A stretch of DNA of 64,000 bases from an uncultured bacterium (GTDB lineage: Bacteria > Actinomycetota > Acidimicrobiia > Spongiisociales > ZC4RG35): contig CAVWBT010000001.1 in the NCBI GenBank assembly GCA_963753285.1, forward strand, positions 115,194-179,193, given 5' to 3'. Position 1 is the stretch's first letter; every line of letters begins with the position of its first letter. The notes below the pieces were generated by a model that worked only from the letters and a program-made list of their open reading frames with translations, did not search any database and was not told the DNA's origin. The translations under genes were made by a program, and so were the position numbers. Shown here piece by piece: positions 4,925-47,096 of the stretch.

Positions 4925-5569
4925 CTAAATGCCGACGTCCCACTCCCGCCGCTGCATGGCGTCCACCACATCCTTCGGGGCCAGATGCGACAGGTACCGG
5001 TCCGTGGTCGCCAGTGAGGCATGCCCGAGTTGCCGTTGGATCACCGGCACCGGCACACCCTCCATCATTAACTCAAACGCCATCGTGTGCCGGAGGCCGT
5101 GAGGGTGGACCCGCTTCTCGATCCCGACCTTCCCGGCGAGCCGGGGCAGCAGCGTTCGCACATACGACGGCTTCAACGGCTTGCCCTTCAAGGTGCAGAA
5201 CAGAGGTGCCCGAGCAGACACCCCTAGCTCTTTCCGTCGGTCAACCCAACGCTGGACGATCGCCATCGCCCCGGGATCGAACCCGACCGTTCGACGGCGG
5301 TCACCCTTCCCATGGAGCACGGTGATGGTCGCCTGCCCGGCGTCGATGTCCTTGGGTTTGAGGGCGAGCGCCTCGCCGAGTCGAAGACCACCCCGGTAGA
5401 GGACGGTGATCAAGGCCCGGTTCCTGATGCCGGTCGGGGCCGTGTTCGAGCAGGCCCGGATCATCGACTTGACCTCATCGGGGGTGAGCACCTCGGCTGG
5501 GTAGGTCTGCCCTTTGTTGGGTGCGGTGCGGCCAGCGTGGTAACCGGGCTGGATGACTGGTGAATTCAT
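4925..5569 (-). CDS. Tyrosine recombinase / phage-type integrase, short catalytic-domain-only form
   Basis: Catalytic motifs HGLRHTMAFELMMEG..LGHASLATTDRYLSH (R..H..R/H..Y). Only 214 aa, no N-terminal SAM-like domain. Confidence 0.8.
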   Translation of the reverse strand: MNSPVIQPGYHAGRTAPNKGQTYPAEVLTPDEVKSMIRACSNTAPTGIRNRALITVLYRGGLRLGEALALKPKDIDAGQATITVLHGKGDRRRTVGFDPGAMAIVQRWVDRRKELGVSARAPLFCTLKGKPLKPSYVRTLLPRLAGKVGIEKRVHPHGLRHTMAFELMMEGVPVPVIQRQLGHASLATTDRYLSHLAPKDVVDAMQRREWDVGI

Positions 5570-5709: not shown

Positions 5710-7410
5710 CTACGGCGTGCCTTGTGCACCAGCCGAGAGCATCTCGATGCGGGATCGAGGGTCTGGGACGAACCCTTCTCGATCCTGGCCCTCACTCGGT
5801 ACGGTGCCTTCGATCCACCCAGAGATCATCAGCTCTCGCCCGATGGTGAAGTCAGCGCCATACGGTCGATCCCAGGACCATTGGACCTCGTCACCGTACA
5901 CACGCTCCACGTCCGCCACAGACGAACCCACACCCAGCCCCTCGTCCGTCCGAAGCCGGATATCGCCGGGACCGAGAGACCAACCCACAAACGCTGGACG
6001 GTCACCGAAGCCGTGCAGATCCGAGAACACGAGCTGAACAGCCCCTCGCCCCCAGCTCACCGACCGGAAGTAGTCCTCGCACCCGAACCCCCCTGAAGCC
6101 GAGAAACATGACCCTCCCTGGCTCCAGGGTGGTACCGCTATCCAATCCGATTCCGGTGGTCCCAGAAGCTCGATGATCGTCCCCACGACGTCATCTACCG
6201 CGTCACCGAAGTCGACCACCCCGAGTCCGTCCGGCCGGAGCTGGATCGCCGCCACAGTCCGCGGTATGACGGGACCTCCGATGTCGATCGACGACTTTGC
6301 CAAGTGCGCGTGACCGGCGACAGGGATTGTGGTAGTCCTGGTTGGGTCGTCGACTGACACCACGATCACGGGCTTGCCATCGGCGACGAGTGCATGGGTG
6401 TCAGACAAGTCGATTAACCGACCATCGAGGACCAGCCGTTCCACACCCAACGCAGTATCGACGAACAACGTCCGCCCTCCCAGCGTGTATCCGAACAGCC
6501 CACCCGAGGGCGAGAGCGTGCAGATGTCCGGGCATCCGTTCCCCTCACACCCAGCCTCGATCCACGGGACCCACACCCATTCCGCCCACAACCCCCGAGC
6601 GGGACCCTCGGGAGGCTCGATGGCCGTCATCGGGTCAACGAGAGCACAGTCCTGACCGACCTGGTTGATGAACAGCGCCACCAACTGCCCGCCACCAGCG
6701 GAGATGCCACTGATCCCGGACTCGAAGACTCCCATCGCTTCCGCCTCAGTCACCGACTGTTGGTCAAGGTCATAGATGCGAAGCCGGTCGATCAGATCCT
6801 CATGTATGCCGTCGTACCAGGTTGGTACCTCGGGGCAGTCCCCGTAGTACGTACAGGCAAACCAGTCCCAGTATCCCGGAGGTGTATCAGATCGCACATA
6901 AACGACCTGAACACTGCCATCCTGGTCGGCAAAGGCGTCCGACAACGTCAGGTCTTGTCCCGTCCCCGGTGTCGGAACGATCAACACTTGTGCTTCACCT
7001 GCACCACGAGGAACCCACCACACCGTGGTGTCCAGATCCGCCAACCCTGACGTCGAGCTGCGGTCCGACCGCCCCCGCTCGACCTGGAACAACAACCCGC
7101 CCCCGGTGTCATCGATCGCATACGCCACCCGCCCCTTCACCAACTGGGTGATCTTCCCGGTCGAATCGATCAGGAACACACCGTCGTCGTTGGTGACCAA
7201 CACATCGACCGCAGGCCATGCGCCTTCGATCCCGGTCGTCGGTGTCTCCGGTGGGACCGTCGACGTCGACTCGACTACCTCGGAAGTCGCGATCGTCGGC
7301 CCACTGGTGGACGGTGTCGTGTCAGTCGACCCCACATCCTCTGAACCACCGGCACATGCCGCTGAGACAATCCCCAACACGACGAAGACCACGATCCAGC
7401 GACGCATCAT
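5710..7410 (-). CDS. Large secreted lipoprotein, hypothetical
   Basis: N-terminal MMRRWIVVFVVLGIVSAACAGG lipobox-like. Long coherent 566-aa ORF. Confidence 0.5.
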   Translation of the reverse strand: MMRRWIVVFVVLGIVSAACAGGSEDVGSTDTTPSTSGPTIATSEVVESTSTVPPETPTTGIEGAWPAVDVLVTNDDGVFLIDSTGKITQLVKGRVAYAIDDTGGGLLFQVERGRSDRSSTSGLADLDTTVWWVPRGAGEAQVLIVPTPGTGQDLTLSDAFADQDGSVQVVYVRSDTPPGYWDWFACTYYGDCPEVPTWYDGIHEDLIDRLRIYDLDQQSVTEAEAMGVFESGISGISAGGGQLVALFINQVGQDCALVDPMTAIEPPEGPARGLWAEWVWVPWIEAGCEGNGCPDICTLSPSGGLFGYTLGGRTLFVDTALGVERLVLDGRLIDLSDTHALVADGKPVIVVSVDDPTRTTTIPVAGHAHLAKSSIDIGGPVIPRTVAAIQLRPDGLGVVDFGDAVDDVVGTIIELLGPPESDWIAVPPWSQGGSCFSASGGFGCEDYFRSVSWGRGAVQLVFSDLHGFGDRPAFVGWSLGPGDIRLRTDEGLGVGSSVADVERVYGDEVQWSWDRPYGADFTIGRELMISGWIEGTVPSEGQDREGFVPDPRSRIEMLSAGAQGTP

Positions 7411-7555
7411 CCCGCCTCCACCACCAGCGTCCAGCCCAGGATGTGCGAGGTCAAGAGCACGATGTCATGGTCGGGTGTTTCCGAGAAGGCGCTCGGATAG
7501 CCGACGACCACCGACGTACTGAGCGAGTCGTTGCCGCTCGCAGTGGACCACCAGC

Positions 7556-7744
7556 TCAGTCCAGGACACCCCGCTCGGATACACCCGCGAACCTCGCACC
7601 CATTCCCGTCACCTCTAACGAGTGGGACATCACCATCCCCCAGACGCGCAGGCCGGCCAGCACGTCGGGATCGATTTCGACGGCATCGACCGATGCAGTC
7701 GTGAGTGCCTTCAGGACGTTGAGGTGAGGTTCGGGTAGCTCCAT
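7556..7744 (-). CDS. Small conserved hypothetical protein (62 aa), family A copy 2
   Basis: MELPEPHLNVLKAL..LRVWGMVMSHSLEVTGMGARFAGVSERGVLD, paralog of the 678-866 protein. Confidence 0.45.
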   Translation of the reverse strand: MELPEPHLNVLKALTTASVDAVEIDPDVLAGLRVWGMVMSHSLEVTGMGARFAGVSERGVLD

Positions 7745-7766
7745 CGATGGAACATACGAGGCGGGT

Positions 7767-8114
7767 GTGACACGCCTTCGTGGCAACATGACACCCATGC
7801 CGACTTCGCGCAGCGTCGAGTCCTGCGACCGACCCCACAAGGCCAATGGCTACTGCACACCCCACTACTACCGGGTTCGCCGCCACGGCGACCCGCAGGC
7901 GCACATCCCGATCGGGAAGGCCAAGCTCAAGGACCAGCAGCGGTGTGAAGTGAAGGCGTGCGACCGGAAGGCGATCGCCCGCGGGATGTGCGATGCCCAC
8001 TACCGGCGATGGCGCAAGGGTGATGGCAGACCCGAGGTTCCCATCGGTCGTCATGCTGCCGCTCCTTCGATTATCACGGTGGAACCGGTGGCTTGTTCGA
8101 TCGGGGGGCTGTGA
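7767..8114 (+). CDS. CxxC..HY zinc-ribbon repeat protein (two motif copies)
   Basis: CDRPHKANGYCTPHYYRVRRHGDP and CDRKAIARGMCDAHYRRWRKGDG. Divergent from the family A copy 2 gene. May be one frameshifted gene together with 8053-8550. Confidence 0.45.
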   Translation: MTRLRGNMTPMPTSRSVESCDRPHKANGYCTPHYYRVRRHGDPQAHIPIGKAKLKDQQRCEVKACDRKAIARGMCDAHYRRWRKGDGRPEVPIGRHAAAPSIITVEPVACSIGGL

Positions 8115-9301: not shown

Positions 9302-9344
9302 GGACCCCCGGCCCTACTTACACCACTCCATGGGACGCTCCCCT

Positions 9345-9600
9345 CCGCCCTGAGATGGGGGTGACGGCAACGCAACTGATTACCGGGCCAACCAATGCTC
9401 GACCGGATCGACCAGTACCCGCTGTCAGAGGACTCGGCGCTGTGGGGCAAGACGGTCACCGACGAACGGCACGCCCTGGTCGATGACGAAGCCGTCGCGC
9501 ACTGATCAGCGAGTCGAGGACACGAACGCCCATTCCGTCGAGTGCTCGGGATCCGCACGTGTAGAGCGGCCCGGGGTGGTCGGACAAGCGTCGCCAGCGC
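9345..9600. repeat. 255-bp dispersed repeat, copy 1 (near-identical to 24078-24332), adjacent to the IS256 transposase fragment
   Basis: Direct comparison of the two regions shows a near-identical nucleotide stretch. One frame ends ..MLDRIDQYPLSEDSALWGKTVTDERHALVDDEAVAH*. Confidence 0.7.
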
Positions 9601-10178
9601 CACCTTTGCGTTTTCGTACCCCACTCATCCCAGTGTCACTGACCCCGTCCGCCCAATGTCAAACACCGTGCCACGAATTGTCGCATCCCCGGCCAGACCC
9701 TCACGGTGTCCCCGAATCCGCCCAGTGGTCATCCGGTTCCAGGGCCACCGACCACGCTGCGCGTTCTCCCAGTATCTGGGGATCACCGGCATAATGCCGG
9801 ATCTGCTCGGAACGACGGGTTCGATAACGCTCCGGGTGTCGGGTGATATGTGCGGCTGGTCGATCGGTCTCTTGAGCAAAGACTGAATGCCTGACCGAAT
9901 CGGGTCGTGGGGTTCTTAGAGTGCCGAGCAAGCGACAGCGAGAGCGCTCATTCCTGATGAGGTTCACGTGCGTTTCCAGTCCCTCCTCAAAGTCACCCGC
10001 ATTGTCCAAGGAGAGCGCCCGCCCGGCGTTCATCACATGACCACAGTTGATGGGGTCGCGAAAGCGATAGACGTGAGCAACACGAAGGTGCCGCGCCTTG
10101 GTTATGGCGGCTGCTGATCCCCGAGGCGTTGTCGGCGGCTGCGGTGGCGCTGCTAACGAGTCCAGCACCCCTGCCTCG

Positions 10179-10228: not shown

Positions 10229-11107
10229 CTAGTTGCAATTCCCCATGCTTCGGTACCAAGTGACCAAGTTGGTGAACTGATCGGTCACGTAGACATTGCC
10301 GCGGGCATCCGCGCCGACGCCATCGAGTCGGTCGAAATCGTCGTCGAACACTTGGGCAATGTAGGCACCCTGTAGCGAGAATTGTTGAACACGTCGCAGA
10401 TTGGTATCTGCGACATATATGAATCCACCTGCGACTTCGATACCACGTGGGTCGTCGAACTCGCCGTCACCGTCGCCATAGCTCCCGAAGCTCCGCAAGT
10501 AGTCGCCGTCGAGAGTAAACACGTCGATCTTGCCGGCGGGGTTGGTCACATAGGCCTTAGCTCCGTGGACAGACACAGCGGTCGCGCCTTCGCCGAACGT
10601 GGCGACCCACTCGCCGTTCGGGCTGAACTTCCGGACCTGACTGAGGATCCAGTCGGTGACGTAGATGAAACCGCGGGCGTCGACATCGATGAACAGCGGC
10701 AGCCCGAACGCCATCGGCGTCCCGTCTTCATCCCACTCACCCCACTCCAGAAGGAGGTTGCCGGCCTTGTCGAAGACTTGGACCTTGGACTCACCCCATG
10801 AGGCGTTGTAGACCTTTTGGTTGTCGACCGTGAGACCGTGCGGGCTCGCAGCCGGGAAGCTCCTCATGTAGTCACCCGAGGTCGTGAAGACGTGGATCAT
10901 TCCGTTACGTTCGTCACTTACGTAGACGTCTCCGCGAACGTCGATGCCCACGTCAATCGCTCCGGCAATGGTCTGCTCCTCTCCTGGAACTCCCCATTCT
11001 GACCACTGGCCCATTTCGGTCAGGTCGCAAGCACCCGTTCCTGCGGCCGGTCCGGCGATGGCCAACACTAAGCCAAACGACATCGTTACAACGAGAACCC
11101 TGCGCAT
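10229..11107 (-). CDS. Secreted NHL-repeat beta-propeller protein
   Basis: Signal peptide. Repeated YVxDxxNxRVxxF-type NHL motifs (IYVADTNLRRVQQF, VYVTDQFTNLV). Confidence 0.55.
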   Translation of the reverse strand: MRRVLVVTMSFGLVLAIAGPAAGTGACDLTEMGQWSEWGVPGEEQTIAGAIDVGIDVRGDVYVSDERNGMIHVFTTSGDYMRSFPAASPHGLTVDNQKVYNASWGESKVQVFDKAGNLLLEWGEWDEDGTPMAFGLPLFIDVDARGFIYVTDWILSQVRKFSPNGEWVATFGEGATAVSVHGAKAYVTNPAGKIDVFTLDGDYLRSFGSYGDGDGEFDDPRGIEVAGGFIYVADTNLRRVQQFSLQGAYIAQVFDDDFDRLDGVGADARGNVYVTDQFTNLVTWYRSMGNCN

Positions 11108-11287
11108 GTCACCTCCACCTCCACTTCACCCGGCTTCCTTCCTGTAACTACAGGAACACCCGCCACCGAAAGTCGCCAGAGGCGTGGGTCACAAATCTCT
11201 GTCGGGAATCTCCCATGGGCGTAGCTCGAAGGTCGCCCATAACGCCAGATATGGGCGATAACGCTCCGACCCACGAACCACGCCGAA

Positions 11288-11386
11288 CGGCACTTCCAGG
11301 GGCGCCCGCATCTTGTCGACCCAACACTGAGCGTGGTGTTCATGCATTGCCACGTTCAGTAGCCAGCGAAGTGCAACGAAGTGCCG
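11288..11386. ncRNA. 99-nt conserved structured intergenic element, copy A (closing stem cggcacttc...gaagtgccg)
   Basis: About 80% identical to 15648-15746. Terminal 9-bp complementary ends and an internal ggcgcc palindrome. Non-coding in all frames. Confidence 0.35.
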
Positions 11387-11557
11387 GTTCGAGGAAGGTA
11401 CCTTCCGGCCTTTTTGCGGCTGGGCTGCGCGTGATTATGGGCGCTGGCGACACGTGATCGGGGGCATCGGACTCTGGTGGCGGTTGTAGGTTTTTGCATA
11501 TGTTGTCATAGCAGTTGGTGTCGAGGCTCGCTCTTGGGATGAGGACTTGGAGACACC

Positions 11558-12055
11558 GTGACGCAGGAGAGGGTTCGCCAGGCGGCAGATGTTGAGAGCT
11601 TCACTGTGTTTGTGAAGAGGTATCAACCGATGCTGCGTAACGCCCTGATCGCAGTAGTGGGACCCGATCTTGCGGGGGACGCGGTGGATGAGGCATTGCT
11701 GTATTGCTGGCAGCGGTGGGATCAGTTTCGCGTTGTGGAGAATCCAGCCGGGTATCTGTGGTCGGTGGGGCGCAGCAAAGGTCGGGATCTAGTGCGCCAA
11801 CGCCGTCGTGGGGAGCGGGTGCGGCCGTTGTTACCGGTGGTTCCGTCGGCGAGTCCGCCGCTAGTCGAGCCTGGATTACCCGTGGCGATGATGCGCCTGC
11901 CGGAACGGCAACGGGTCGCTGTGTTTTTGATTCACGGGTATGGCTGGACTCACGCGGAGGTCGCCGGATTCCTTGGCCTCTCGGTACCGACGGTTCAGAA
12001 GCACGCTGATCGTGGGCTAGCCAAGCTGCGGCGGGGGCTAGGAGCGCGACCATGA
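11558..12055 (+). CDS. ECF-subfamily RNA polymerase sigma-70 factor
   Basis: Sigma region 2 and region 4 features (..LLYCWQRWDQF.., ..GYGWTHAEVAGFLGLSVPTVQKHADRGLAKLR). Confidence 0.7.
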   Translation: MTQERVRQAADVESFTVFVKRYQPMLRNALIAVVGPDLAGDAVDEALLYCWQRWDQFRVVENPAGYLWSVGRSKGRDLVRQRRRGERVRPLLPVVPSASPPLVEPGLPVAMMRLPERQRVAVFLIHGYGWTHAEVAGFLGLSVPTVQKHADRGLAKLRRGLGARP

Positions 12056-14283
12056 CGACCGACATAGCTGAGCAGGTCCGGGAGTACGCAGAGTATGTGG
12101 ATTCGATCGTCCCGGACTGGACTGTTGAGGGCGTCCTCACCAGTCCGGTCGCGGAGCCACAGTCTGAGGGTCCTCGACGCCGCTGGTATTCCACTTCGCA
12201 GCGAGGGGTCCTCGCTGCTTTGGGCGCGGCCATCGTTGTCCTGGTGGTCGTAACCACTCCCACAAGCCTGACCACCACCCTGCCCGATGGTCCCACCACC
12301 GTGAGGCAGTCCATCCCCTGGTACGGGCAGACCAACGTCCTTGACGTGGAGGTTGGAGCCGATGGGAGTCTCTGGGCGACTCTGGGCGACGGGGTAGTGC
12401 GCTGGACACCGGGTTCCGAGATTCCAGAGGTGTATATGAACCGGGAGACGCCAAATGTGGAGGCGTACCGTATCACCGTGGCACCGGATGGCGACGTGTG
12501 GGTGGGGAGCATGTGGCAAATGGCACGCTTCGATGGCTCGTGGACGACGTTCGGACCCCGCGATCCCGACGACGCTCTCATGCGAGTCCTGGAGCAGGAC
12601 GGACCCGAGGACCCGATTGCGGTGGACAACGACGGCGTGGTGTGGAGTGCCATGGGTAGGCACTACCTGGGCCGCCTCGACGGCTGGGAATACGAGTTCT
12701 TCAGTGCTCCAGTTCAGGACTCCTTCGGAGACCTTATGGGTTGGGCGACGTCGATCGACGTCGCCCCTGATGGAACGGTGTGGGTCGGCTCGGCCTGGTC
12801 CAACGCGGTGTTTGCCTTCGATGGTACCGACTGGACTACCTACACCGCGGCCGATGGTCTTCCCGGTGGGGTCGGATGGATTGTGGCGGTGGCGCCGGAT
12901 GGAACGGTGTGGGCGGGGGCGGGTGCCGACATCCCCGGCTCCGGTCGCATCGCCGCGACGATGGGCGTGGCCCGCTTCGATGGGTCGGAGTGGATGGTGT
13001 ATACGACAGCTGACGGGCTTCTCTCCAACGACGCTGCGGTTGAAATCGGCCCCGACGGAACCGTGTGGGCCATACAAGCGTCCGGTGTGTCCCACTTCGA
13101 GGACAACACATGGGTCTCGTACCCCGATGCGCCTGGGCTCGGTTTCCGAGCTGCAGTCGATGCCTCGGGCACATTGTGGAGGCCGGACACCGATGGACTG
13201 GTCGGTTTTGATGGCACCAATATCACCCGACACGTGCTTCCGATCGACGAGCCACCCACCTCGCCCATTCCCCCATCGGGAGCTTGGGACCCGATCCTGT
13301 CAACCACGTCGGCCAAGACGGCTCCGCCCGCAGCGACCTGCCCGGCCGGAACCGATCCGGCTGCTCCCGGTCCGGTCGATCAGGAACGCCCCGACCCACG
13401 CTGGGTTACCAACGTCGCCGCGGCTTTCGATCGGCATACCGGCCGAATCGTCTATGTCGACGTCCGCGGCGCGACATGGACGTTCGATGTGTGCACCAAC
13501 ACCTGGGAGTTCATGAATCCCGAGGGAGCGCCGTACGCCGATCGTTCGGACCTATTGGACGCGCGCGGCCAGGGATCCGGAGTGCTCGGCGATCTCGTAT
13601 ATGACGCCGATTCCGACCGGACCATCGCGTTCGGCAGTGTCCTGGCGGTCTACGATGCCAACACCAACACGTGGACCCAACCCCGCCCCGACCCAGCCAA
13701 CCTTGCAACGGGACGGGGGCCAGCCGTATACGACCCGGTCACCGGGTTGATCATCACGACCGGTGACGAGGGACTCTTGGCCTATGACGTCGACACCAAC
13801 ACCTGGACGGTGATCGGTCCCATCATTCACGAGGATCTCCTTGTCGGTGACTTCCTCGGGTACTCACCGGAGATCGATCGACTCATCTTCGTCCAGCCCG
13901 ACCACACGCGGCTGATCGATCCTCGCACGGGCGAATCGACGTTGGTCGTGACCGACAGCCCCTACATCAATCTGGTATGGCCCTCAGAGGTCCACGGATC
14001 GGCTGCGGACACTGTTTACGTAACCCAACATTGGGACGGCGACCTCATCAACTTCCGCATATGCGGCTTCGACACCGTCAACCTGGCCTGGACCTCATGT
14101 GTCGACGTCCCAGAGGACGTGGAAGGCCAACACTACGTGTTCTCAGCCATGGTTGGTGACCCGATCAACAACCGACTCGTCCTGATCAACGGCGGGTGGG
14201 GTAACTCCATCGACGACGTCTGGTCCGTCGACCTCGACACCGGGGAGTGGATCCAACTCGTCGCAGCGAGCAGAGGGGGATGA
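12052..14283 (+). CDS. Membrane anti-sigma-like protein with extracytoplasmic beta-propeller (two-component-regulator-propeller-like) and Kelch-like repeats
   Basis: ATGA overlap with the sigma factor gene. One TM segment. Repeated DG(S/T)(L/V)W..G motifs. Confidence 0.5.
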   Translation: MTTDIAEQVREYAEYVDSIVPDWTVEGVLTSPVAEPQSEGPRRRWYSTSQRGVLAALGAAIVVLVVVTTPTSLTTTLPDGPTTVRQSIPWYGQTNVLDVEVGADGSLWATLGDGVVRWTPGSEIPEVYMNRETPNVEAYRITVAPDGDVWVGSMWQMARFDGSWTTFGPRDPDDALMRVLEQDGPEDPIAVDNDGVVWSAMGRHYLGRLDGWEYEFFSAPVQDSFGDLMGWATSIDVAPDGTVWVGSAWSNAVFAFDGTDWTTYTAADGLPGGVGWIVAVAPDGTVWAGAGADIPGSGRIAATMGVARFDGSEWMVYTTADGLLSNDAAVEIGPDGTVWAIQASGVSHFEDNTWVSYPDAPGLGFRAAVDASGTLWRPDTDGLVGFDGTNITRHVLPIDEPPTSPIPPSGAWDPILSTTSAKTAPPAATCPAGTDPAAPGPVDQERPDPRWVTNVAAAFDRHTGRIVYVDVRGATWTFDVCTNTWEFMNPEGAPYADRSDLLDARGQGSGVLGDLVYDADSDRTIAFGSVLAVYDANTNTWTQPRPDPANLATGRGPAVYDPVTGLIITTGDEGLLAYDVDTNTWTVIGPIIHEDLLVGDFLGYSPEIDRLIFVQPDHTRLIDPRTGESTLVVTDSPYINLVWPSEVHGSAADTVYVTQHWDGDLINFRICGFDTVNLAWTSCVDVPEDVEGQHYVFSAMVGDPINNRLVLINGGWGNSIDDVWSVDLDTGEWIQLVAASRGG

Positions 14284-14324
14284 GATGACCCTACCTGTAC
14301 CGCCAAAGCGATTCGAGATCATGG

Positions 14325-15158
14325 TTGCGATTCTTGGAGTGGTTTGTGTCGGCATGTGTGAGCACGCCGGGCGCCGCACCAGCGACCACGATGCCAGCGG
14401 TCCAGGATGACACTACGGCAGTACCGGCACCGATTGCTGCGGCGTGGTCGTTCCTGGGCACGGTCGACGACTGGCTGACTGAGCCCGTGATTTTGAACGG
14501 TGAGTACTACGCCACCCGCAAGGGACTCGACGACGATGCACAGCCGAATCGGGACGGTCTCGTCGAAGGACACATCGAACGGGTCGGTGAGCTGTGGACA
14601 TCGCTGGACGGCGTGACCTGGATACCTGCCGTGGGAGGTGAACGGCCGCCGCCCGTGTCGCCCGAAGCGCCGATCGAAGGGGCTGCGGTTGTCGTGCGGC
14701 GCAATCCACTCGGAGATCTGTACGGCCAGCTCGTCGCCGAGGGTCTGTGGGCGACCAGCGACGGGACATCTTGGCGAGAGATCGCTGTGCGACCGTCGCA
14801 AGACAACTGGATACCGTGGGTGGAGACCGGCGGACTCGGCTGGGTCGTCTACTCACCGCCAGCGGAAGCGGCGGTCGAGGCCGACGCGAGCAGCTACTTC
14901 CAGGGTCCTCGGCACGGGAACCTGGGTTTGTGGTACACCCCCGACACCGAAGCCTGGTTCGAGGTGACCGACCTCGGACCACTCTCCGACACCATCCACA
15001 GCGTCGGAGAGGTGGGTGTCATCGACACCGCGATGATCGTCCGAGATACCGACATCCTCGTGTACGCCCACATCGCCAAGAACATCGGCTTCGGGTTCAT
15101 GGGCGATCCGCACACCGACATCTGGCAACTCGACCTATCGCCGGAAGAATCTGACTAA
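14325..15158 (+). CDS. Hypothetical (lipo)protein
   Basis: Coherent 277-aa ORF with N-terminal hydrophobic/Cys segment. No recognised domain. Confidence 0.35.
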   Translation: MRFLEWFVSACVSTPGAAPATTMPAVQDDTTAVPAPIAAAWSFLGTVDDWLTEPVILNGEYYATRKGLDDDAQPNRDGLVEGHIERVGELWTSLDGVTWIPAVGGERPPPVSPEAPIEGAAVVVRRNPLGDLYGQLVAEGLWATSDGTSWREIAVRPSQDNWIPWVETGGLGWVVYSPPAEAAVEADASSYFQGPRHGNLGLWYTPDTEAWFEVTDLGPLSDTIHSVGEVGVIDTAMIVRDTDILVYAHIAKNIGFGFMGDPHTDIWQLDLSPEESD

Positions 15159-15273
15159 GCGCACCGTGCTACTGGACATCGGTAACGGACACGCAGAACG
15201 ACTGATTTCGGATGAGTCCGGACGACGTCTCGTCTACTGGCCACGAGTCTGGGCCGCCCGAGCGCTGGCGTAA

Positions 15274-15573
15274 GTGGGTGATAGAGAGACGGGACCAGCG
15301 TTGCTGGCAGCACTCGACGACGAACATTGGCGTGTTCGCATGACAGCAACCCAGACCATTGGGCGGCTCGGTATCGAGGATGCGACGTCCCACCTCCTGC
15401 AAGGGCTGGGTGACCAACACCAACGGGTGAGATCGGCGTCGGTCCTGGCGCTGCAACGGGTTGGTACCGAGGACGCCGTCGAAAGGCTTCTCCAGCAGCC
15501 GGTGACCGGCATCGAGCGCAGTCGCACCGAACGGGCCGCCGCGATGATCCTTGATCGTTCGGCCAACGGATAG
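15274..15573 (+). CDS. HEAT/PBS-lyase-like repeat protein (99 aa)
   Basis: Repeats of the ..D..W.VR..A...LG..G...A...L...L.D....VR..A type. Confidence 0.4.
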   Translation: MGDRETGPALLAALDDEHWRVRMTATQTIGRLGIEDATSHLLQGLGDQHQRVRSASVLALQRVGTEDAVERLLQQPVTGIERSRTERAAAMILDRSANG

Positions 15574-15647
15574 CAGGCGACGCACGGCCAGCCACGCCGA
15601 TCACCAAATACGGCGCACGAACGCACCTCTCACCGAGTGTCCGGGAT

Positions 15648-15746
15648 CGGCACTTCGAGGGGCGCCTGCCTCTCGTCGGGTCGTCACTGAGCGTGGTGCT
15701 CATCCGTTGCCGCGGTCTGTAGCTAGCGAGTGCAGCAACATGCCGG
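15648..15746. ncRNA. 99-nt conserved structured intergenic element, copy B
   Basis: Aligns with 11288-11386 (cggcacttcgaggggcgcc...tgagcgtggtgctcat...gtagctagcgagtgcagcaacatgccgg). Confidence 0.35.
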
Positions 15747-15782
15747 TCATGGGCGGTCTGTCCGCTGAGCGTCGGCCGGGGT

Positions 15783-16478
15783 TCAGCCGGGATCGTGCTC
15801 GGTCTGGCCTGGGGGGGATTGTGGTGACCCGTGAGTGCTAGCGGTGTGGTCCCTGACGATGAGAACGGGACAAGCCACAATCAGCCAAAGGAATAGAGCG
15901 AGACCGCCAACCCCTAGACCAGTCGGGATCAGCGCCACGGTGGCCGCGACGAGTACGACGCCCACCCAGGCGAACGGCTTGGGCAGCAACCCCACGACGA
16001 ACGAGCTGACGCTCATCGTGGCGGCGACACCTAGCGCACCAATCATGAACAGGTCACTGATGTGTTCTTTGAGCATTGATAGCGGAAGCACCGCATCGGT
16101 AAGCATGTTCGGGTCGATCGGTGCGCTCGTCGCCATGCGATATGACGCATGAACGAAAGCGCCGATCGTCATGACAATCCCGAACGCATAGGCCACCAGA
16201 GCCAACATTTCACCTTTAGAGCCTTCCCGGGCGAGGCGCATCCGCAGCGAGGCAACAAACCCGACCAAGGCAAACGCTCCGACAATGCCGACCGTGCTTC
16301 CAGCGACGATTCTCGCCCTGTTGTCAGTGATCTCAGCCGCCAGCTCACTGACCGGACTGTCAGGCCCCAACCAACCACCATGGTCGATAACAAAGAACCC
16401 CGCGAACATCAATACCAATCCTGCCAGCCCCAACAACCACCCAATCAGGTCAAGTACATCCGAACGATCGGTCGACAT
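15783..16478 (-). CDS. Polytopic membrane protein, hypothetical
   Basis: Several hydrophobic helices. Confidence 0.45.
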   Translation of the reverse strand: MSTDRSDVLDLIGWLLGLAGLVLMFAGFFVIDHGGWLGPDSPVSELAAEITDNRARIVAGSTVGIVGAFALVGFVASLRMRLAREGSKGEMLALVAYAFGIVMTIGAFVHASYRMATSAPIDPNMLTDAVLPLSMLKEHISDLFMIGALGVAATMSVSSFVVGLLPKPFAWVGVVLVAATVALIPTGLGVGGLALFLWLIVACPVLIVRDHTASTHGSPQSPPGQTEHDPG

Positions 16479-17099
16479 GTTCCAGGTCCCCTCTTTCAAG
16501 TTCGCCATCGATCCCGCTACTCATACATGAGAACAGACGAACCAGACGGAAAAACGGGTGACACCAGCCCGTCGCAGCCAGCAAGTCCTCACTTGGGGCG
16601 CGTCCTGGCCCCGACGAGTAGTCACGCCATCAACACCAGCTCACCAACAAAAGTGAACATCGCACGTTCAGCGAGTAGTCGGCGAGGAACGTCCCGAAGG
16701 CGTCGATCGGGTAGCCGATCCCGGCGATCGCAGTGAGGGCAACGATCCCGAAGTCGCCGTTGCTGGCGGCGCTGACACAGGAGACCTAGGTCCCCACCGT
16801 CGCTGCGGGGTTGCAAACCTGGTCTGTCGAAGCGGCGGTGCCGCGGACGCTGACCAGGAGTACGAAACGCGGCGCCACCCTGGGACAGCGAACCGATCAC
16901 ACGCGCCCATCTTGATCAGTGGCACGCCGCCTTCCAAGCTCCCGATGCTGCAGAGCTCGCCTTGTTCGACTCTGTGAGCTGAATCGGAGTAGCCGCCGGC
17001 ACGGCCAACGGACAGAACGCCAGCAACGCAGATCTCCAGATCCCGGGCAGAAACGAGCACCTCGCAGAATGCCCTGGATCGAGGCCTGTTTGTTTGTCA

Positions 17100-18450
17100 A
17101 GGGGTGTTTTGGGCGCGGTGGACCGGCCCGGCGGTGCCGGGTAGTGGCGTAGGGTTAGGAGCGGCTCGGGGTGGCTGCGCTGAAGAGCCGGTGATCAGGA
17201 TGTAATCCGGTCACGCAAGCGACAGAGACGTTCCTGTTTGCCCCCCGGGCCTTATCTGGATTGGTCGGCGTTCAGCTGGCGATAGACGACGTCGGAGAGC
17301 CGGCGTTTCAACGCCCTGATGGCCTCTTTGTTGGTTTTGCCTTCTGCGAGTTTCCGCTCGTAGAACACTCGGCCCTTGGTGTCGGGTTGGCGGAGCTGGC
17401 AGATGGCGATCAGATGCAACGCATGGTTGAGCATCCGGTTGCCTTTCGGGTTGAGCCGATGCCGTTTCCTCCCACCGGAGGACGCTTCGATGGGTGCGGT
17501 CCCGTTGTAGGCGGCGTAGTGGTGTTTGGTCGGGAACCGGGTGATGTCTCCGGTGTATCCGATCAGTAGGCCGGCGACGACCGGGCCGACACCGTATATG
17601 TCGGTGAGGCCGGTGCCGGAGGCTTCCACCGCCACGGCGAGACGCTCTCGAGATGCCTTCTTCTCCTTCTCCAGGCGCCGCACTTCGGCGAGGTGTTGGT
17701 GGGCGATGCGTTTGCGTTCTGTCTCCACCATGGTCTTGGGTCGGATCCGCCGCAGCATCCGTGATGCTTTGTGAGACGAGAGCTCTCCGCTCATTCCCCC
17801 AGGTAGCAGCACCGCCAACACCGCATGCAGTCTCGACGCCGCCTGGGTCTTCAAACTGGAGAGCTGTTTGTGGCGTCCAGCGAGCATCCGGAGCACCGCA
17901 ACATGATCTTCGACGGTGACTTGCCGCAACCCGTTCTGGTGCAGTGCGACGATCGCCACCGAACGAGCATCATTGGCGTCGTTCTTCTGTGACCTCCTCG
18001 AGTCGAGGACACGAGCCCGAGAGGCCAGAGTCGAAGGCACGTCGACGACATGCTCTCCAGCAGCGACCAGCTGTTGGGCCAGCAGGTAGCCGTGGCCGTT
18101 CGCCGACTCGACCGCCCAGCGGCGTTCACCGAACCGTTCCGCCCAAGCCAACAACTCCGAGAGTTGGCGTTTACTTGCCCGGACCTCGATTTCGGCGACA
18201 GGCTGATCGTCTCCGTTCATAGCCGCAGCCGCATGAGAACCCTTGTGAGGGTCGATACCGATAACCACCGACATGATCCACCTCCAGTTCGCTCTTGGGG
18301 GTCGGTGTGAGGGTGGAGGGCACTCCTGATAAGGATCCGCGTGCTACGCCTGTTTCGAGCCACACCACCCACCAGAACCCCAGGCGGATACAGCAGCTCG
18401 TTCGAAAGCCAACCCGCAAAGGGTGGCAGGCACTTAGAGAGCCAGACCCG
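17100..18450 (-). mobile_element. IS110-family insertion sequence (approximate ends)
   Basis: Intact 340-aa transposase. IS110 elements lack terminal inverted repeats, so the ends are not defined from sequence. Confidence 0.5.
17252..18274 (-). CDS. IS110-family transposase (DEDD type)
   Basis: MSVVIGIDPHKGSHAAAAM.. N-terminus. Conserved IS110 middle and C-terminal blocks (YGVGPVVAGLLIGYTGDITRF, AIRALKRRLSDVVY). Confidence 0.85.
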   Translation of the reverse strand: MSVVIGIDPHKGSHAAAAMNGDDQPVAEIEVRASKRQLSELLAWAERFGERRWAVESANGHGYLLAQQLVAAGEHVVDVPSTLASRARVLDSRRSQKNDANDARSVAIVALHQNGLRQVTVEDHVAVLRMLAGRHKQLSSLKTQAASRLHAVLAVLLPGGMSGELSSHKASRMLRRIRPKTMVETERKRIAHQHLAEVRRLEKEKKASRERLAVAVEASGTGLTDIYGVGPVVAGLLIGYTGDITRFPTKHHYAAYNGTAPIEASSGGRKRHRLNPKGNRMLNHALHLIAICQLRQPDTKGRVFYERKLAEGKTNKEAIRALKRRLSDVVYRQLNADQSR

Positions 18451-18560
18451 ACCGGGGCTCTAGCAACGCTACGGAACCAACCTCCGCAGCACCCCCACAT
18501 CACTATCAGGCACCTATGCGGTCGTGCGCTTGACCCACTGCGACCACTGAAAGCGGTCGG

Positions 18561-23947: not shown

Positions 23948-24077
23948 GCGGTCAACAACAGCATGATGTCAAGCATCGAGTGGTTGAAGACCAGTCGTCC
24001 GCAAAGCCGGGCTGCGCACCCGACCGTCGGCCAACCTGGCGCATCGGTGCACTGTTGATGCTGCCGCCGCTCCGCCC

Positions 24078-24332
24078 TGGGATGGGGGTGACGGCAACGC
24101 AACTGATTACCGGGCCAACCAATGCTCGACCGGATCGACCAGTACCCGCTGTCAGAGGACTCGGCGCTGTGGGGCAAGACGGTCACCGACGAACGGCACG
24201 CCCTGGTCGATGACGAAGCCGTCGCGCACTGATCAGCGAGTCGAGGACACGAACGCCCATTCCGTCGAGTGCTCGGGATCCGCACGTGTAGAGCGGCCCG
24301 GGGTGGTCGGACAAGCGTCGCCAGCACGACCT
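24078..24332. repeat. 255-bp dispersed repeat, copy 2, inserted in the 3' part of cpaF
   Basis: Near-identical to 9345-9600. Confidence 0.7.
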
Positions 24333-25131
24333 TCACGAGGTCGCGGAGCGTGATCGCCCCGGAGCCGTCGAGACCTGGGGGTCTCGCTTCGTAGTACGAA
24401 CCGTGGACGAGGGGCACGTGCAACTCGCGCACTTCCTCGCAGCAACGGATGCAGTGCGAGGTGGGGGCTGCGTTCATGAGCGCAGCCAGAAGCGACGTTT
24501 TTCCCGCCCCCGGCTGACCGGAGATCACGATGCTGGACGTGGTTTGCATCACGTGCTTGAGGAACGACGCAGCGGCCGACGAAATCGAGTCGAATTCGAC
24601 GAGCGACCCGAGGGTCTCTTTTCGAAGGGCATAGCGACGCACCGTCACGGACGTCTGGTCGGCGATCGGCGGGATGACCGCAGTCAGACGAGCAGAGTTG
24701 TCCAGAACGCGCGCCTGCACGATCGGGTTGGCAGCGTCCAGTCGGCGGTCTGATCGGGCGAGGAGGCGGTCGATGACGTGCTTGTTCTCTTCGGCCGTGG
24801 TCGGCTCGTCGAGGCTGCGCAGACGGCCGGTCCCGTCGATGTACGTGACTCTGGCGCCTTCGATGAAGATCTCCTCGATGTCGGGGCGCTGGAGCAGATC
24901 GGTCAACGGCCCGTACTCGGCGAGCGACCTGGTGACTCGAGCGATCATCTCGCCGGGGTTGCCGAGTGTTCGCTCGTCACCGATGTGGGCGCGGCGCTGG
25001 TACTCCTCCACCGATCTCGTGACCACCTGCCTGATCGAGTCGACATCGGCGTCGGCGTCGAGGCGCTGCTCCTCGACGAGTTGCAACGCCCGGCGGCGGA
25101 TGTCGAGATAGGCGTTGCCGCGCTCACTCAT
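24333..25131 (-). pseudogene. cpaF: CpaF/TadA-type pilus assembly ATPase, 3'-truncated (N-terminal ~266 aa only)
   Basis: Walker A VISGQPGAGKTSLLAALM, then IRCCEEVRELH and AITLRDLVKVVLA. Homology stops exactly at the repeat boundary. Asp and His boxes are missing. Confidence 0.6.
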
Positions 25132-43410: not shown

Positions 43411-43846
43411 GGCTTCACCCTACCGACGTCTCGGATCTCTTCTCGCTTCCGGCCGCGCGCACCTGAGCATCGCTGTTGAACCCCGACGGGAGGTGTCATG
43501 CCGTATCAACGAGAGGCCTGCTTCCCGCCGATGCAGCGGATCGCCTGGCTGCTGGATGCGTGGGTCTGCTCTTCGGCCCCTTCACAGGAAGATGTGCTGG
43601 TTCCGCCGTTCATCCCGTTGGTCGCTCTCGTCTGGATCGGTCACGACTGGCTCAAACGTGGACCCGTCGAGGACTGGAAGGATTCGCTGCCGCACTTCCG
43701 CCGACCGGGACAGACACCTTCGCCTCGTGATCAGCCAAGCCGACGCCATGTCCGTCTCGGAGGGCTAGTCACGTCGGGCTTCTGTGAATGGTCCTCCAGT
43801 TTTCTCGCGTGTCACGCCGATGGGAGGAAAGGCGCCGAAGAGTGGG

Positions 43847-45757
43847 ATGGCAGGAATGCGGATAGGAATCAATTGGGATCACAGGACCGGTAGACCCACG
43901 GCGATCCTCGCGATCCTCGCGATGATCTCGACGTTGTTCGCAGCCTCTGGGACCGCCGCCAGCACCGAATCCACCGGGACGATCGACGTCATCGTGCGCG
44001 AGGCGGCTCCACTCACCGATGCCGCCGAGTCCCTCGTGGAACGCCTCGGGGGCACGGTCCGTGACAATCTCGGCATCATCGGTGGATTCACCGCCACCGT
44101 CCCCGCCGACGCCATCGGGTTGCTCACCACCAGCCCCGACATCGAAGCGGCAACCCCTGACGGCACGGTCCAGTTCGCAGCGGCCGGATGGGATGATGCG
44201 ACAGCGCTCGGCGACATCGACTTCCGCAGCTACTCCGGATCGCTCTATCAGATCACCCGGACGACCAAGGCCGTCAATGCCTGGGGCAAGGGATACACCG
44301 GATACGGCGTGGACGTTGCCCTGATCGACACAGGCGTGGCTCCATTGCGATCGCTCCCGGCGTCGAGAGTCGTCAACGGGCCCGATCTCTCCTTCGAATC
44401 CCAGAACCCCGATCTCCAGTACCTGGACTCGAACGGGCACGGCACCCACCTGGCCGGCATCATCGCCGGGACCGACGTGTCGCTCGACTTCACGAGCCCG
44501 GGTGACAGCAGTGTCTTCATCGGCATGGCACCGGGCTCGCGGATCATCAGCCTCAAAGTCGGCGCCCACGACGGCTCTGTCGATGTGTCGCAGGTCATCG
44601 CCGCCATCGACTGGGTCGTGCAACATCGCAACGACCCGGGCTTCAACATCAGGGTCCTCAACCTGGCGTTCGGGACCGATGCGACCCAGTCGTATGTCCT
44701 CGACCCCCTCTCGTACGCCGTCGAGCAGGCATGGAAGAACGACATCGTCGTGGTCGTGGCTGCCGGAAACGATGGAAACCAGTCCCCGCTTCGGAACCCG
44801 GCGATCGATCCCTTCGTCATCGCAGTCGGATCCGGATTCGCCAGCGACTTCAGAGCCGACAACAACACGAGGGTCGTCTATGACTCGCTGTCGGACTTCT
44901 CCAACTGTGGGACGTCGGAGCGCGGAGTCGACATCCTGGCCCCTGGCAAATCCATCACCAGCCTCAGGACACCCGGCTCGTACGCCGACGTGAACAACCC
45001 CAAGGCGCGAGTCGGCGCCGACTACTTCCTGGGTTCGGGCACCAGCCAGGCCGCTGCGATCGTGTCCGGCGCAGCAGCGCTCATCATCGACGCATGGCCC
45101 GACATGTCTGCCGACGAGGTGAAGTACCTCCTGACGGCCAATGCCACGCCGGTCAACGGGGCCTCGGCGACCTGCCAGGGCGCCGGAATGATCGCTCTGG
45201 ACTTCCTGGCCAGCAACACCAAGAAGGCCCCGAACACCAGGGGAGCGACCCAGACGTTCGTGCCATCGGTTGGCGACGGAACCCTCGAGGACGCTCGCGG
45301 CACACATCACGTCGAGATGCAGAACGCCGAGGGAAAGAACGTCGTCCTCCGCGGCGAGCAGGACATCATGGGAAGCCCCTGGGTCGGCTTCAACACCACG
45401 ACCACCGTGTGCGCCAAGGAGGGGAAGGGCAAGAACGCCGTGATCGCCTGTACCGACGTGCTCGAACCCGTCGAGACGCTGTGGGACGGCGGCAGCTGGA
45501 ACGGTCGGAGCTGGTCGGGGACCTCGTGGTCCGGAGACACGTGGTCCGGTCTCAGCTGGTCCGGGACCTCGTGGTTCGGCTTGAGCTGGTCCGGCCTGAG
45601 CTGGTCCGGTCTGTCCTGGTCCGATCAATCCTGGTCCGGGCTGTCCTGGTCGGGTAGGTCGTGGTCGGGTAGCTCGTGGTCGGGCGCCTCGTGGTCCGGT
45701 CTGTCCTGGTCCAGCGGCGGCACCGCAATTTCCGACCAGGGTGTGCGCTGGAGCTGA
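43847..45757 (+). CDS. Secreted subtilisin-like S8 serine peptidase with I9 propeptide and C-terminal (SWSGx)n repeat tail
   Basis: Catalytic triad contexts VALIDTGV, HGTHLAGIIAG, GTSQAAAIVSGAAALI. Signal peptide. The 3' end encodes about 18 SWSGx pentapeptide repeats. Confidence 0.75.
   Translation: MAGMRIGINWDHRTGRPTAILAILAMISTLFAASGTAASTESTGTIDVIVREAAPLTDAAESLVERLGGTVRDNLGIIGGFTATVPADAIGLLTTSPDIEAATPDGTVQFAAAGWDDATALGDIDFRSYSGSLYQITRTTKAVNAWGKGYTGYGVDVALIDTGVAPLRSLPASRVVNGPDLSFESQNPDLQYLDSNGHGTHLAGIIAGTDVSLDFTSPGDSSVFIGMAPGSRIISLKVGAHDGSVDVSQVIAAIDWVVQHRNDPGFNIRVLNLAFGTDATQSYVLDPLSYAVEQAWKNDIVVVVAAGNDGNQSPLRNPAIDPFVIAVGSGFASDFRADNNTRVVYDSLSDFSNCGTSERGVDILAPGKSITSLRTPGSYADVNNPKARVGADYFLGSGTSQAAAIVSGAAALIIDAWPDMSADEVKYLLTANATPVNGASATCQGAGMIALDFLASNTKKAPNTRGATQTFVPSVGDGTLEDARGTHHVEMQNAEGKNVVLRGEQDIMGSPWVGFNTTTTVCAKEGKGKNAVIACTDVLEPVETLWDGGSWNGRSWSGTSWSGDTWSGLSWSGTSWFGLSWSGLSWSGLSWSDQSWSGLSWSGRSWSGSSWSGASWSGLSWSSGGTAISDQGVRWS
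45485..45722 (+). repeat. 15-nt tandem repeat (agctggtccggNctg)n inside the S8 protease CDS, encoding (SWSGL)n
   Basis: Read directly from the sequence. Confidence 0.7.
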
Positions 45758-46547: not shown

Positions 46548-46620
46548 GCCCGAGTAGCTCAGGGGATAGAGCAACTGCCTCCTAAGCAGTAGGTCGCAGG
46601 TTCGATTCCTGCCTCGGGCG
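46548..46620 (+). tRNA. tRNA-Arg (anticodon CCT)
   Basis: Cloverleaf by eye: acceptor stem GCCCGAG/CTCGGGC, D-arm AGCTCAGGGGATAGAGC, anticodon loop CTCCTAA, T-arm GCAGGTTCGATTCCTGC, discriminator G. Confidence 0.8.
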
Positions 46621-46635
46621 CAGTGCCTTTGCTGG

Positions 46636-47010
46636 CCGACTTCTGGACAAGGCCGCAACGGCTTCGGAGGGAATCACGAGTCCAGAACAGACGCCGGTCG
46701 GCCAGGGCTGCCGCACTCGACCCCCGCCTCCGATCCCGCACGCCAGACACCCGGCCGGCCGACTTCTGGACAAGGCCGCAACGGCTTCGAAGGGAATCAC
46801 GAGTCCAGAACAGACGCCGGTCGGCCACGGCTGCCGCACTCGACCCCCGCCTCCGATCCCGCACGCCAGACACCCGGCCGGCCGACTTCTGGACAAGGCC
46901 GCAACGGCTTCGAAGGGAATCACGAGTCCAGAACAGACGCCGGTCGGCCACGGCTGCCGCACCCCCGCCTCAGATCCCGCAGGCCAGAAGCCCGGCCGAC
47001 CGGCTTCTGG
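46636..47010. repeat. 123-bp tandem repeat, 3 copies plus a degenerate partial fourth, immediately 3' of tRNA-Arg; each unit has an imperfect hairpin (ggccgacttctggac...gtccagaa..ggtcggcc)
   Basis: Period measured as 46636 to 46759 to 46882 (123 nt each). Copies are more than 95% identical. Confidence 0.8.
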
Positions 47011-47096
47011 AAAGTGCCGCCCGACCGGCGAGGGAAACGATCGGACACCCCTCGACGCTCCGCTCCGTTCGATGAGCGCTCAGCCGGGAGCAGCGT

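Follow-up and report, generated by a model that had tools for sequence, protein, structure and literature searches.

Copies A and B, the two imperfect palindromes considered here, are a real repeat in the 64-kb stretch of DNA that we analyzed (hereafter the window), and they are neither a recognizable RNA nor a protein-coding piece. Their host is an uncultured bacterium, Acidimicrobiia-like to judge by the names of its homologs, and in a variable island of its genome they probably have to do with site-specific recombination. The short box on which both copies end is a strain-level breakpoint in gene order and the insertion point of an IS110-family element, and modules carrying the same end motifs are found in different contexts. 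Our reading, which is tentative and to which we would give somewhat less than an even chance, is that the two copies are palindromic DNA junction pieces of an array of gene modules shuffled by a site-specific recombinase.

The first-pass annotation had described two non-coding segments of 99 nt that were about 80% identical. Both lie where it placed them, and local alignment widened them to 104 and 103 nt, which are 78.8% identical across 104 columns that include one 1-nt indel (blastn E = 1e-19):

11285-11388, no strand assigned: copy A, a 104-nt imperfect palindrome that reads GAACCGGCAC...GAAGTGCCGTTC on the minus strand

15645-15747, no strand assigned: copy B, 103 nt, which reads GACCGGCAT...GAAGTGCCGATC on the minus strand

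The perfectly complementary 9-nt ends reported for copy A (CGGCACTTC at 11288-11296 and GAAGTGCCG at 11378-11386), its GGCGCC palindrome and the core CACTGAGCGTGGTG(T/C)TCAT common to both copies all hold, and GGCGCC is present in copy B as well. The terminal inverted repeat of copy A extends to 13 nt with one bulge, while only CGGCA/TGCCG and three outer pairs are left of the terminal stem in copy B. Homology between the copies ends abruptly and exactly at these short terminal inverted repeats, and alignment of the flanks, 3 kb on either side, detected no other similarity at the nucleotide or translated level. No target-site duplication was found at either copy, the flanks being ...CACGCC|...|GAGGAA for copy A and ...TCCGG|...|ATGGGC for copy B. 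The copies lie 4.36 kb apart in direct orientation and bracket one block of genes.

Repeat finding, scans with a 14-mer and a 19-mer, and a covariance model detected no third copy in the 64-kb window. The 19-mer CGGCACTTCNAGGGGCGCC, allowing up to 3 mismatches, matched copies A and B only, with 0.19 matches expected by chance in the window, and the two copies were likewise the sole matches of the conserved 14-mer. The covariance model built from the pair scored 136 and 131 bits on the copies and 19.8 bits on the next best site in the window, and it found no additional copy at 12 loci. In the sequence collections, the core 19-mer CACTGAGCGTGGTGNTCAT occurred at 23 places in genome contigs, 32 in metagenome contigs and 3 in viral contigs, and GGCACTTCNAGGGGCGCC at 3 places in viral contigs; all 19-mer matches in the genome, metagenome and viral collections were of seed length only, indicating chance rather than a true copy. 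One match in an Acidimicrobiia MAG (L020) was rejected as the start of an unrelated gene. A third A/B-like copy on L062 was rejected too, since the 16 visible bases fit a short perfect hairpin better, GCACCTCGA-A-TCGAGGTGC, of which the box described below is a part. The resemblance of copies A and B is much greater than chance would give, and the copy count proposed in the first-pass annotation came to two in the window, with seed-length matches in the collections scanned.

The genes around the two copies are unrelated in predicted function:

10229-11107, minus strand: gene for a secreted NHL-repeat protein, the next module after copy A and its R2-like repeat when read in minus orientation

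11558-15573, plus strand: block of four ORFs (ECF sigma factor, 743-aa Kelch/propeller protein, 277-aa protein, HEAT-repeat ORF with an in-frame stop)

11558-12055, plus strand: ECF sigma factor gene, right of copy A

15166-15573, plus strand: HEAT-repeat ORF (Pfam E = 1e-13; in-frame stop at 15271-15273)

15783-16508, minus strand: membrane-protein gene, right of copy B, in a module that ends in the first bases of copy B (CCCATGACCGGCAT)

The sigma factor gene is followed by the gene for the 743-aa Kelch/propeller protein and then by that for the 277-aa protein, and the block as a whole is bracketed by the copies, with copy A 170 nt upstream and copy B 72 nt downstream. The HEAT-repeat ORF is a pseudogene or else a gene whose start codon is GTG 15274. 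A minus-strand ORF of 138 amino acids beside copy B (15169-15585) was rejected as a gene, since it is the antisense shadow of the HEAT-repeat ORF; its G+C frame pattern is gene-like, yet its sole match among 1.8 billion representative proteins is itself junk-like. The left part of the window (1-27000) has about 62% G+C and a third-position G+C of 0.71-0.77, against 65-66% and 0.80-0.89 in the right part (28000-64000). The left 27 kb or so are probably a horizontally acquired or flexible island, which their low G+C and low third-position G+C fit.

Several other repeats were observed in the window or its relatives. Three segments in inverted-repeat relation, within 650-1400 and 7556-7912, are 74-79% complementary and are probably diverged paralogous genes in opposite orientation. 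Repeats with periods of 15 and 45 nt (CTGGTCCGG...) at 45481-45712 lie in a long ORF (43784-45757) and would encode a repetitive peptide. A tRNA gene at 46548-46620 is immediately followed at 46634-47020 by a tandem array in which a 123-nt unit occurs 3.2 times (94% matches). In a relative (the Logan contig of P0003), two pairs of sigma factor and Kelch/propeller protein genes stand in tandem, indicating that the pair duplicates locally.

Each copy adjoins a member of a second repeat family. This repeat, R2, is an intergenic sequence of about 60 nt, first recognized on a related contig (L066), that opens with an invariant box, GTGCCG(A/T)TC (GTGCCGATC). Five repeats were located in the window:

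15594-15653, minus strand: R2 after copy B (nhmmer E = 3e-17); its box, GTGCCGATC at 15653-15645, is the last 9 nt of copy B

11234-11293, minus strand: degenerate R2-like repeat after copy A, aligned by eye and with MAFFT, not significant in nhmmer; box GTGCCGTTC at 11293-11285

17026-17085, minus strand: R2 upstream of the membrane-protein gene (nhmmer E = 5e-13), with its box interrupted by the IS110-family element

9499-9558, minus strand: R2 with the box variant GTGCGGATC (nhmmer E = 4e-9), inside a duplicated segment of 267 nt

24228-24285, minus strand: twin of the R2 at 9499-9558 (nhmmer E = 4e-9)

Read in minus orientation, copies A and B each finish in the 9-nt box that starts an R2, with the repeat on the same side of each copy and in identical orientation, so that the contexts, which had been called unrelated intergenic ones, in fact share the element that abuts both copies. 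All five repeats in the window lie on the minus strand, and all seven on L066 lie on the plus strand (2989, 4140, 5764, 7229, 8257, 9677 and 10909, spaced 1.0-1.6 kb apart), whatever the orientation of the flanking genes. R2 is conserved as a sequence, with a nearly invariant box, and its consensus gave no secondary structure or hairpin, for which reason an attC-like hairpin was rejected as its identity. A role as promoter or terminator was rejected because R2 is positioned inconsistently relative to gene starts and ends and consensus scans were at chance level, and so was an origin as a tRNA-derived att repeat, since R2 has only 7-8 nt in common with the tRNA 3′ end in L067. That contig, a relative without copy B, carries a tRNA gene in reverse orientation at about 10880-10955, some 150 nt downstream of the membrane-protein gene. 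The 267-nt segment mentioned above is a direct repeat (9340-9606 and 24067-24333, 99% identical and 14.7 kb apart) that brackets most of the array, each of its copies holding an R2 and the start of an ORF.

A third contig of the same sample, L072, has eight box repeats on the plus strand (166, 1416, 2084, 2956, 4799, 5211, 8015 and 8563), all co-oriented, all intergenic and with different flanks. These carry a different conserved left arm, ...CGAGCGCCGAG|GTGCCGATC|TCGCGCAG..., which suggests a wider box family.

Comparison with L066 places a strain-level break on the box. A segment of 1.49 kb (window 15593-17081) is 97% identical between the two, with 99.3% identity in the membrane-protein coding sequence and 95.9% in the non-coding stretch upstream of it. 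Copy B is included (9582-9685 on L066), with 0 differences in 103 nt; about 4 would be expected from the 4% divergence of the nearby non-coding DNA, which is weak evidence for its conservation. Right after the box, in the 52 nt to the left of copy B, identity falls to 69%, and farther out the genes are unrelated, so that the break in identity falls exactly at the end of the copy-B box. The other end of the shared segment is the box of the R2 at 17085, which carries the IS110 insertion in the window. Clean box breakpoints between strains therefore number only one, because the second coincides with the insertion.

More distant relatives locate the ends of the module. The membrane-protein gene has many homologs at 75-99% identity, and its segment was seen in five other contexts, each ending at the motif with which copy B starts. 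In five relatives with 87-91% nucleotide identity (L067-L071), this segment is all that is common with the window, and copy B and R2 are absent downstream of the gene in all five, an absence whose weight is reduced by the fact that intergenic DNA at 85-90% identity may have diverged past alignment. When L067, L068 and L071 were compared pairwise, homology began exactly at GTGCCGTTA(T/C)G and stopped at CATAACCGG(C/T)AT between unrelated flanks, that is, with GTGCCG at the start and AACCGGCAT at the finish. The module is thus bounded by GTGCCGTTATG...CATAACCGGCAT in three genomes, its two ends are imperfect inverted repeats of one another, and copies A and B start with its right-end motif. In the window and L066, the right end, CCCAT(G/A)ACCGGCAT, forms the opening bases of copy B, and copy A opens with GAACCGGCAC.

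On the minus strand, the order is accordingly a box and R2, the membrane-protein gene, ...CCGGCAT and about 85 nt of inner copy B; then a box and R2, the sigma block in reverse, ...CCGGCAC and about 85 nt of inner copy A; and then a box and R2-like repeat followed by the NHL gene. We take the copies to be junction pieces because each has the end motif of one module at one edge and the start motif of the following module at the other. Shorter junctions are built of the same half-motifs elsewhere, CCGCAC-GCATCA-GTGCCG in L066 and the hairpin GCACCTCGA-A-TCGAGGTGC in L062. In another genome, where the NHL gene is 84% identical at the nucleotide level, no element lies beside it. None was found at three distant sigma/propeller loci (L063-L065, homologs at 50% identity or less), so a tie between the repeat and the sigma/anti-sigma-like pair was rejected.

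The same box is also a landing site:

17082-18512 (ends approximate), minus strand: IS110-family element, with its transposase at 17252-18274 (Pfam and NCBIfam IS110 matches)

This element splits an R2 box, with GTGCC on one side of it and CGATCC on the other. The interrupted box reads GGTGCC, then about 1.43 kb of insertion sequence, then CGATCCAGGG, and the intact copy on L066 reads GTGCCGATCCAGGG. IS110-family elements target repeated intergenic sequences (PMC11208160; bioRxiv 10.64898/2026.03.19.712850), and other insertion sequences target pdif recombination sites (PMC10132070). The 5′ non-coding region of the element (18275-18512) contains two GTGCC-bearing stretches, possible guide loops of a bridge RNA for the box target.

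The arrangement suggests how the copies may work. Copies A and B would be two versions of one imperfect-palindromic junction of about 104 bp between adjacent modules of the variable island. On the minus strand, each would open with the end motif of the preceding module, (G)A(A)CCGGCA(C/T), and close with the box GTGCCG(A/T)TC, which would in turn open the R2, acting as the leader repeat of about 60 nt of the next module. We infer that crossover takes place at the box, where a site-specific recombinase would insert modules, excise them or exchange one for another. The inverted ends CCGGCAC and GTGCCGG, with the roughly 85 bp between them, could be a mini-module devoid of an ORF or a hairpin-forming accessory part of the site, and the two copies could reflect the same junction type used twice or a duplication. 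The element would act as DNA and not as a transcript. Candidates for the recombinase are a Xer-type tyrosine recombinase of the host or a relative of a truncated gene in the window:

4925-5569, minus strand: Xer-like tyrosine recombinase fragment, 214 aa, catalytic domain only, 4 kb away from the array

What leads us to this reading is the contact of both copies with the box and R2, alike in side and orientation, the co-oriented intergenic arrays, the breakpoints on the box and the lack of copy B in relatives. Against it, the 214-aa fragment is the only tyrosine recombinase in the window and falls below every NCBIfam cut-off (77 bits in two split stretches against the integron integrase model TIGR02249, with a cut-off of 265); it comes directly after two genes that could not be annotated (5710-7410 and 7407-8054), and the gene tables of L066 and L072 contain no call of a tyrosine recombinase. 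The spacer of 85 bp between the half-sites is also too long for a simple core site of such an enzyme, the canonical AAC...GTT of attC is missing, matches to a predicted Frankia dif are at background level, and R2 has no hairpin.

The first-pass annotation had offered a small RNA, a cis-regulatory structure or a miniature mobile element, and the first two of these would require the repeat to act as RNA. Copy A could then serve the ECF sigma operon as a 5′ leader or riboswitch-like element, or be an sRNA ended by a hairpin just to its right, and copy B a paralogous sRNA or 3′-UTR element, all on the plus strand. The hairpin in question is the following:

11393-11416, plus strand: terminator-like palindrome, GGAAGGTACCTTCC then GGCCTTTTT, just right of copy A

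We consider this improbable, even though the sigma gene starts 170 nt downstream of copy A, a hairpin and T-run come after this copy, G-U pairs favor the plus strand, and copy A folds better than shuffled sequences (-46.8 kcal/mol, z = -2.0, with a terminal stem and a perfect inner hairpin of 13 bp). Copy B, with a shorter terminal stem and a different perfect hairpin of 8 bp, folds no better than its shuffles (-50.0 kcal/mol, z = -0.2) and has no plus-strand gene or terminator downstream. Covariation had been proposed as a check, and in the three stable stems P1-P3 it gave 0 compensatory pairs, with 10 of 64 cells unpaired in the pairwise alignment, though a test on two diverged sequences has low power; each stem is preserved in one copy and disrupted in the other, and all variable pairs but one are broken in one copy. 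An RNAalifold consensus hairpin on the plus strand showed two double changes and none broken, with a column-shuffle p of about 0.05 (0.4 on the minus strand), but it has nearly zero pair probability in both single-sequence ensembles and, at -28 kcal/mol against -47 for copy A and -50 for copy B, is 19-26 kcal/mol worse than the minimum-free-energy folds. Rfam returned only the tRNA at 46548-46620 for the whole window at gathering thresholds, nothing overlapping either copy at E ≤ 10, and nothing at the copy-B homolog on L066 at E ≤ 1, so that the copies were rejected as a known RNA family. Promoter- and terminator-like matches near the copies, the hairpin above included, occur at the frequency expected in shuffled sequence, and the element is missing at the distant sigma/propeller loci. 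The idea of a small RNA or cis-regulatory structure consequently lost its support. The same annotation had attributed the similar translations over the two copies to nucleotide identity alone and considered the segments non-coding, which was borne out: the overlapping plus-strand ORFs (11215-11457 and 15551-15841) have no Pfam match and, by our own count, a third-position G+C of about 38-60%, against 71-89% in real genes, and the other frames contain stops, so that a small protein on either strand was rejected.

Mobile DNA is the closest of the three earlier options, and two explanations of the repeat as DNA compete with junction pieces. The copies could be a selfish, non-autonomous MITE- or REP-like repeat that lodges by the box and has no role in moving genes, with the breaks in synteny due to insertion sequences or recombination between repeats. 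We regard this as unlikely, though worth keeping in view. The terminal inverted repeats of 13 nt at which homology stops exactly, the stems that have decayed in one copy but are still perfect in the other, as in neutrally aging palindromes, the absence of copy B in five relatives, and an IS110 element that targets the adjacent box, as such elements do REP sequences (PMC11208160), would all be expected of it. It would, however, have to account for a count of just two copies in 64 kb and a single ortholog, the seed-only matches in the genome, metagenome and viral scans, the lack of a target-site duplication, ends that are common with neighboring units and not its own, the clustering in one island, and a strict co-orientation of box repeats in three arrays that is unusual for random insertion. 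The miniature mobile element proposed earlier is therefore retained in part: the terminal inverted repeats, the absence in relatives and the location on a synteny breakpoint agree with it, while the copy number, the missing target-site duplication and the nature of the copies as module junctions rather than self-contained units do not. Alternatively, the repeat could be a simple relic, a junction segment copied once by local duplication or rearrangement and now drifting, with an inherited palindromy that serves no function. Two direct copies 4.36 kb apart bracketing one gene block, a divergence of 21% with no compensatory pattern, and the tandem sigma and propeller pairs in relatives, which show that local duplications occur in this gene family, are consistent with such a history. 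We think it doubtful, as no other part of the flanks is duplicated, the boundaries fall on recurrent motifs and not on arbitrary points, and copy B is identical in two strains, the last being the weak argument from 0 against about 4 expected differences.

If the box repeats are recombination sites, as the reading of the copies as junction pieces has it, they would explain the swapping of accessory genes (sigma/sensor pairs, secreted propeller proteins and small membrane proteins) in abundant uncultured Acidimicrobiia of water and sediment, and they would provide a simple sequence marker for a flexible gene pool in metagenomes. If they are only selfish or relic sequences, the case is an ordinary one, and its main value is the caution that a tidy hairpin pair is no RNA gene. 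Most known cassette systems that shuffle genes with no transposase of their own, integrons and dif modules among them, come from Proteobacteria, and to our knowledge integrons are essentially unreported in Actinobacteria; a search of full-text literature found no paper that brings together integrons, attC and Acidimicrobiia. A bolder possibility, and in our view an unlikely one, is that the box and R2 arrays are an undescribed cassette platform of Acidimicrobiia with a 9-bp core, GTGCCG(A/T)TC, and a recombinase other than IntI, in which copies A and B would be long recombination sites able to form hairpins, analogous in function to attC but of independent origin.

Among known systems, the array resembles an integron in its co-oriented repeats at nearly every gene junction, in modules of one to few genes of unrelated function, and in the occurrence of the same module in different arrays with a break inside a short invariant core. 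Copies A and B, at 104 and 103 nt, are imperfect palindromes within the 57-141 nt range of attC, with CCGGCAC in the place of the inverse core and GTGCCGG in that of the core. Insertion sequences of the IS110/IS1111 group target attC sites, and here an IS110-family element has hit the box. The differences are nonetheless considerable. The RYYYAAC (R'') and GTTRRRY (R') boxes are absent, the ends of the copies being (G)AACCGGCAC and GTGCCG(A/T)TC; the strain break lies at the box GTGCCGATC and not at a conserved GTT inside R2; and most junctions consist of the hairpin-less R2 of 60 nt, which is conserved in sequence, whereas attC is conserved in structure and not in sequence. At 14-30 nt, the short junctions seen elsewhere are below the attC range, about half of the genes in the array are in reverse orientation, and the window has no integron integrase, the fragment at 4925-5569 being far below the TIGR02249 cut-off. 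The array is not a canonical integron, and a link to Xer/dif is only a candidate.

The dif or pdif modules of Acinetobacter plasmids, together with the IMEX elements that integrate at dif, also consist of modules that lack their own recombinase and have short sites at every junction. As in pdif modules, the site motifs switch polarity from one to the next along the array (GTGCCG..., ...CCGGCAC, GTGCCG...), and the same module occurs in different contexts with breaks at the sites (the window against L066, and L067, L068 and L071 among themselves). Mini-modules without an ORF are known in the dif-module system (PMC13141974), and insertion sequences specifically target pdif sites (PMC10132070). 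One junction, CACGCATAA-GTGCCG-TTATGTACC in L067, has the ATAA-N6-TTATGT look of a dif site, a 28-bp sequence in which a 6-bp spacer separates an 11-bp XerC arm from an 11-bp XerD arm. Most junctions, in contrast, have no recognizable XerC and XerD arms. Against the predicted Frankia dif, CACGCCGATAATGCACATTATGTCAAGT (PMC3025954), the best of all the junctions scored matched at 13-14 of 22 arm positions, which equals the shuffled background and lends no support to dif-likeness by this reference, which is from Frankia and not from Acidimicrobiia. The array is also chromosomal and in an actinobacterial lineage, and no GC-skew switch marks a replication terminus in the window, so a terminus location of the array was rejected.

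REP, BIME, REPIN and MITE sequences resemble the copies in being intergenic and palindromic, with terminal inverted repeats and decaying stems, and REP sequences likewise serve as landing sites of IS110-family elements (PMC11208160). Copies A and B differ from them in being clustered in one island, strictly co-oriented, of very low copy number in the window and free of target-site duplications, and no RAYT (IS200/IS605-type Y1) or matching transposase was found in the ORFs scanned at 1-28 kb or in the gene tables of L066 and L072. Although membership appears to fail or to be unproven in both cases, the architecture of the array would work like that of integron cassettes or of the dif modules of Acinetobacter.
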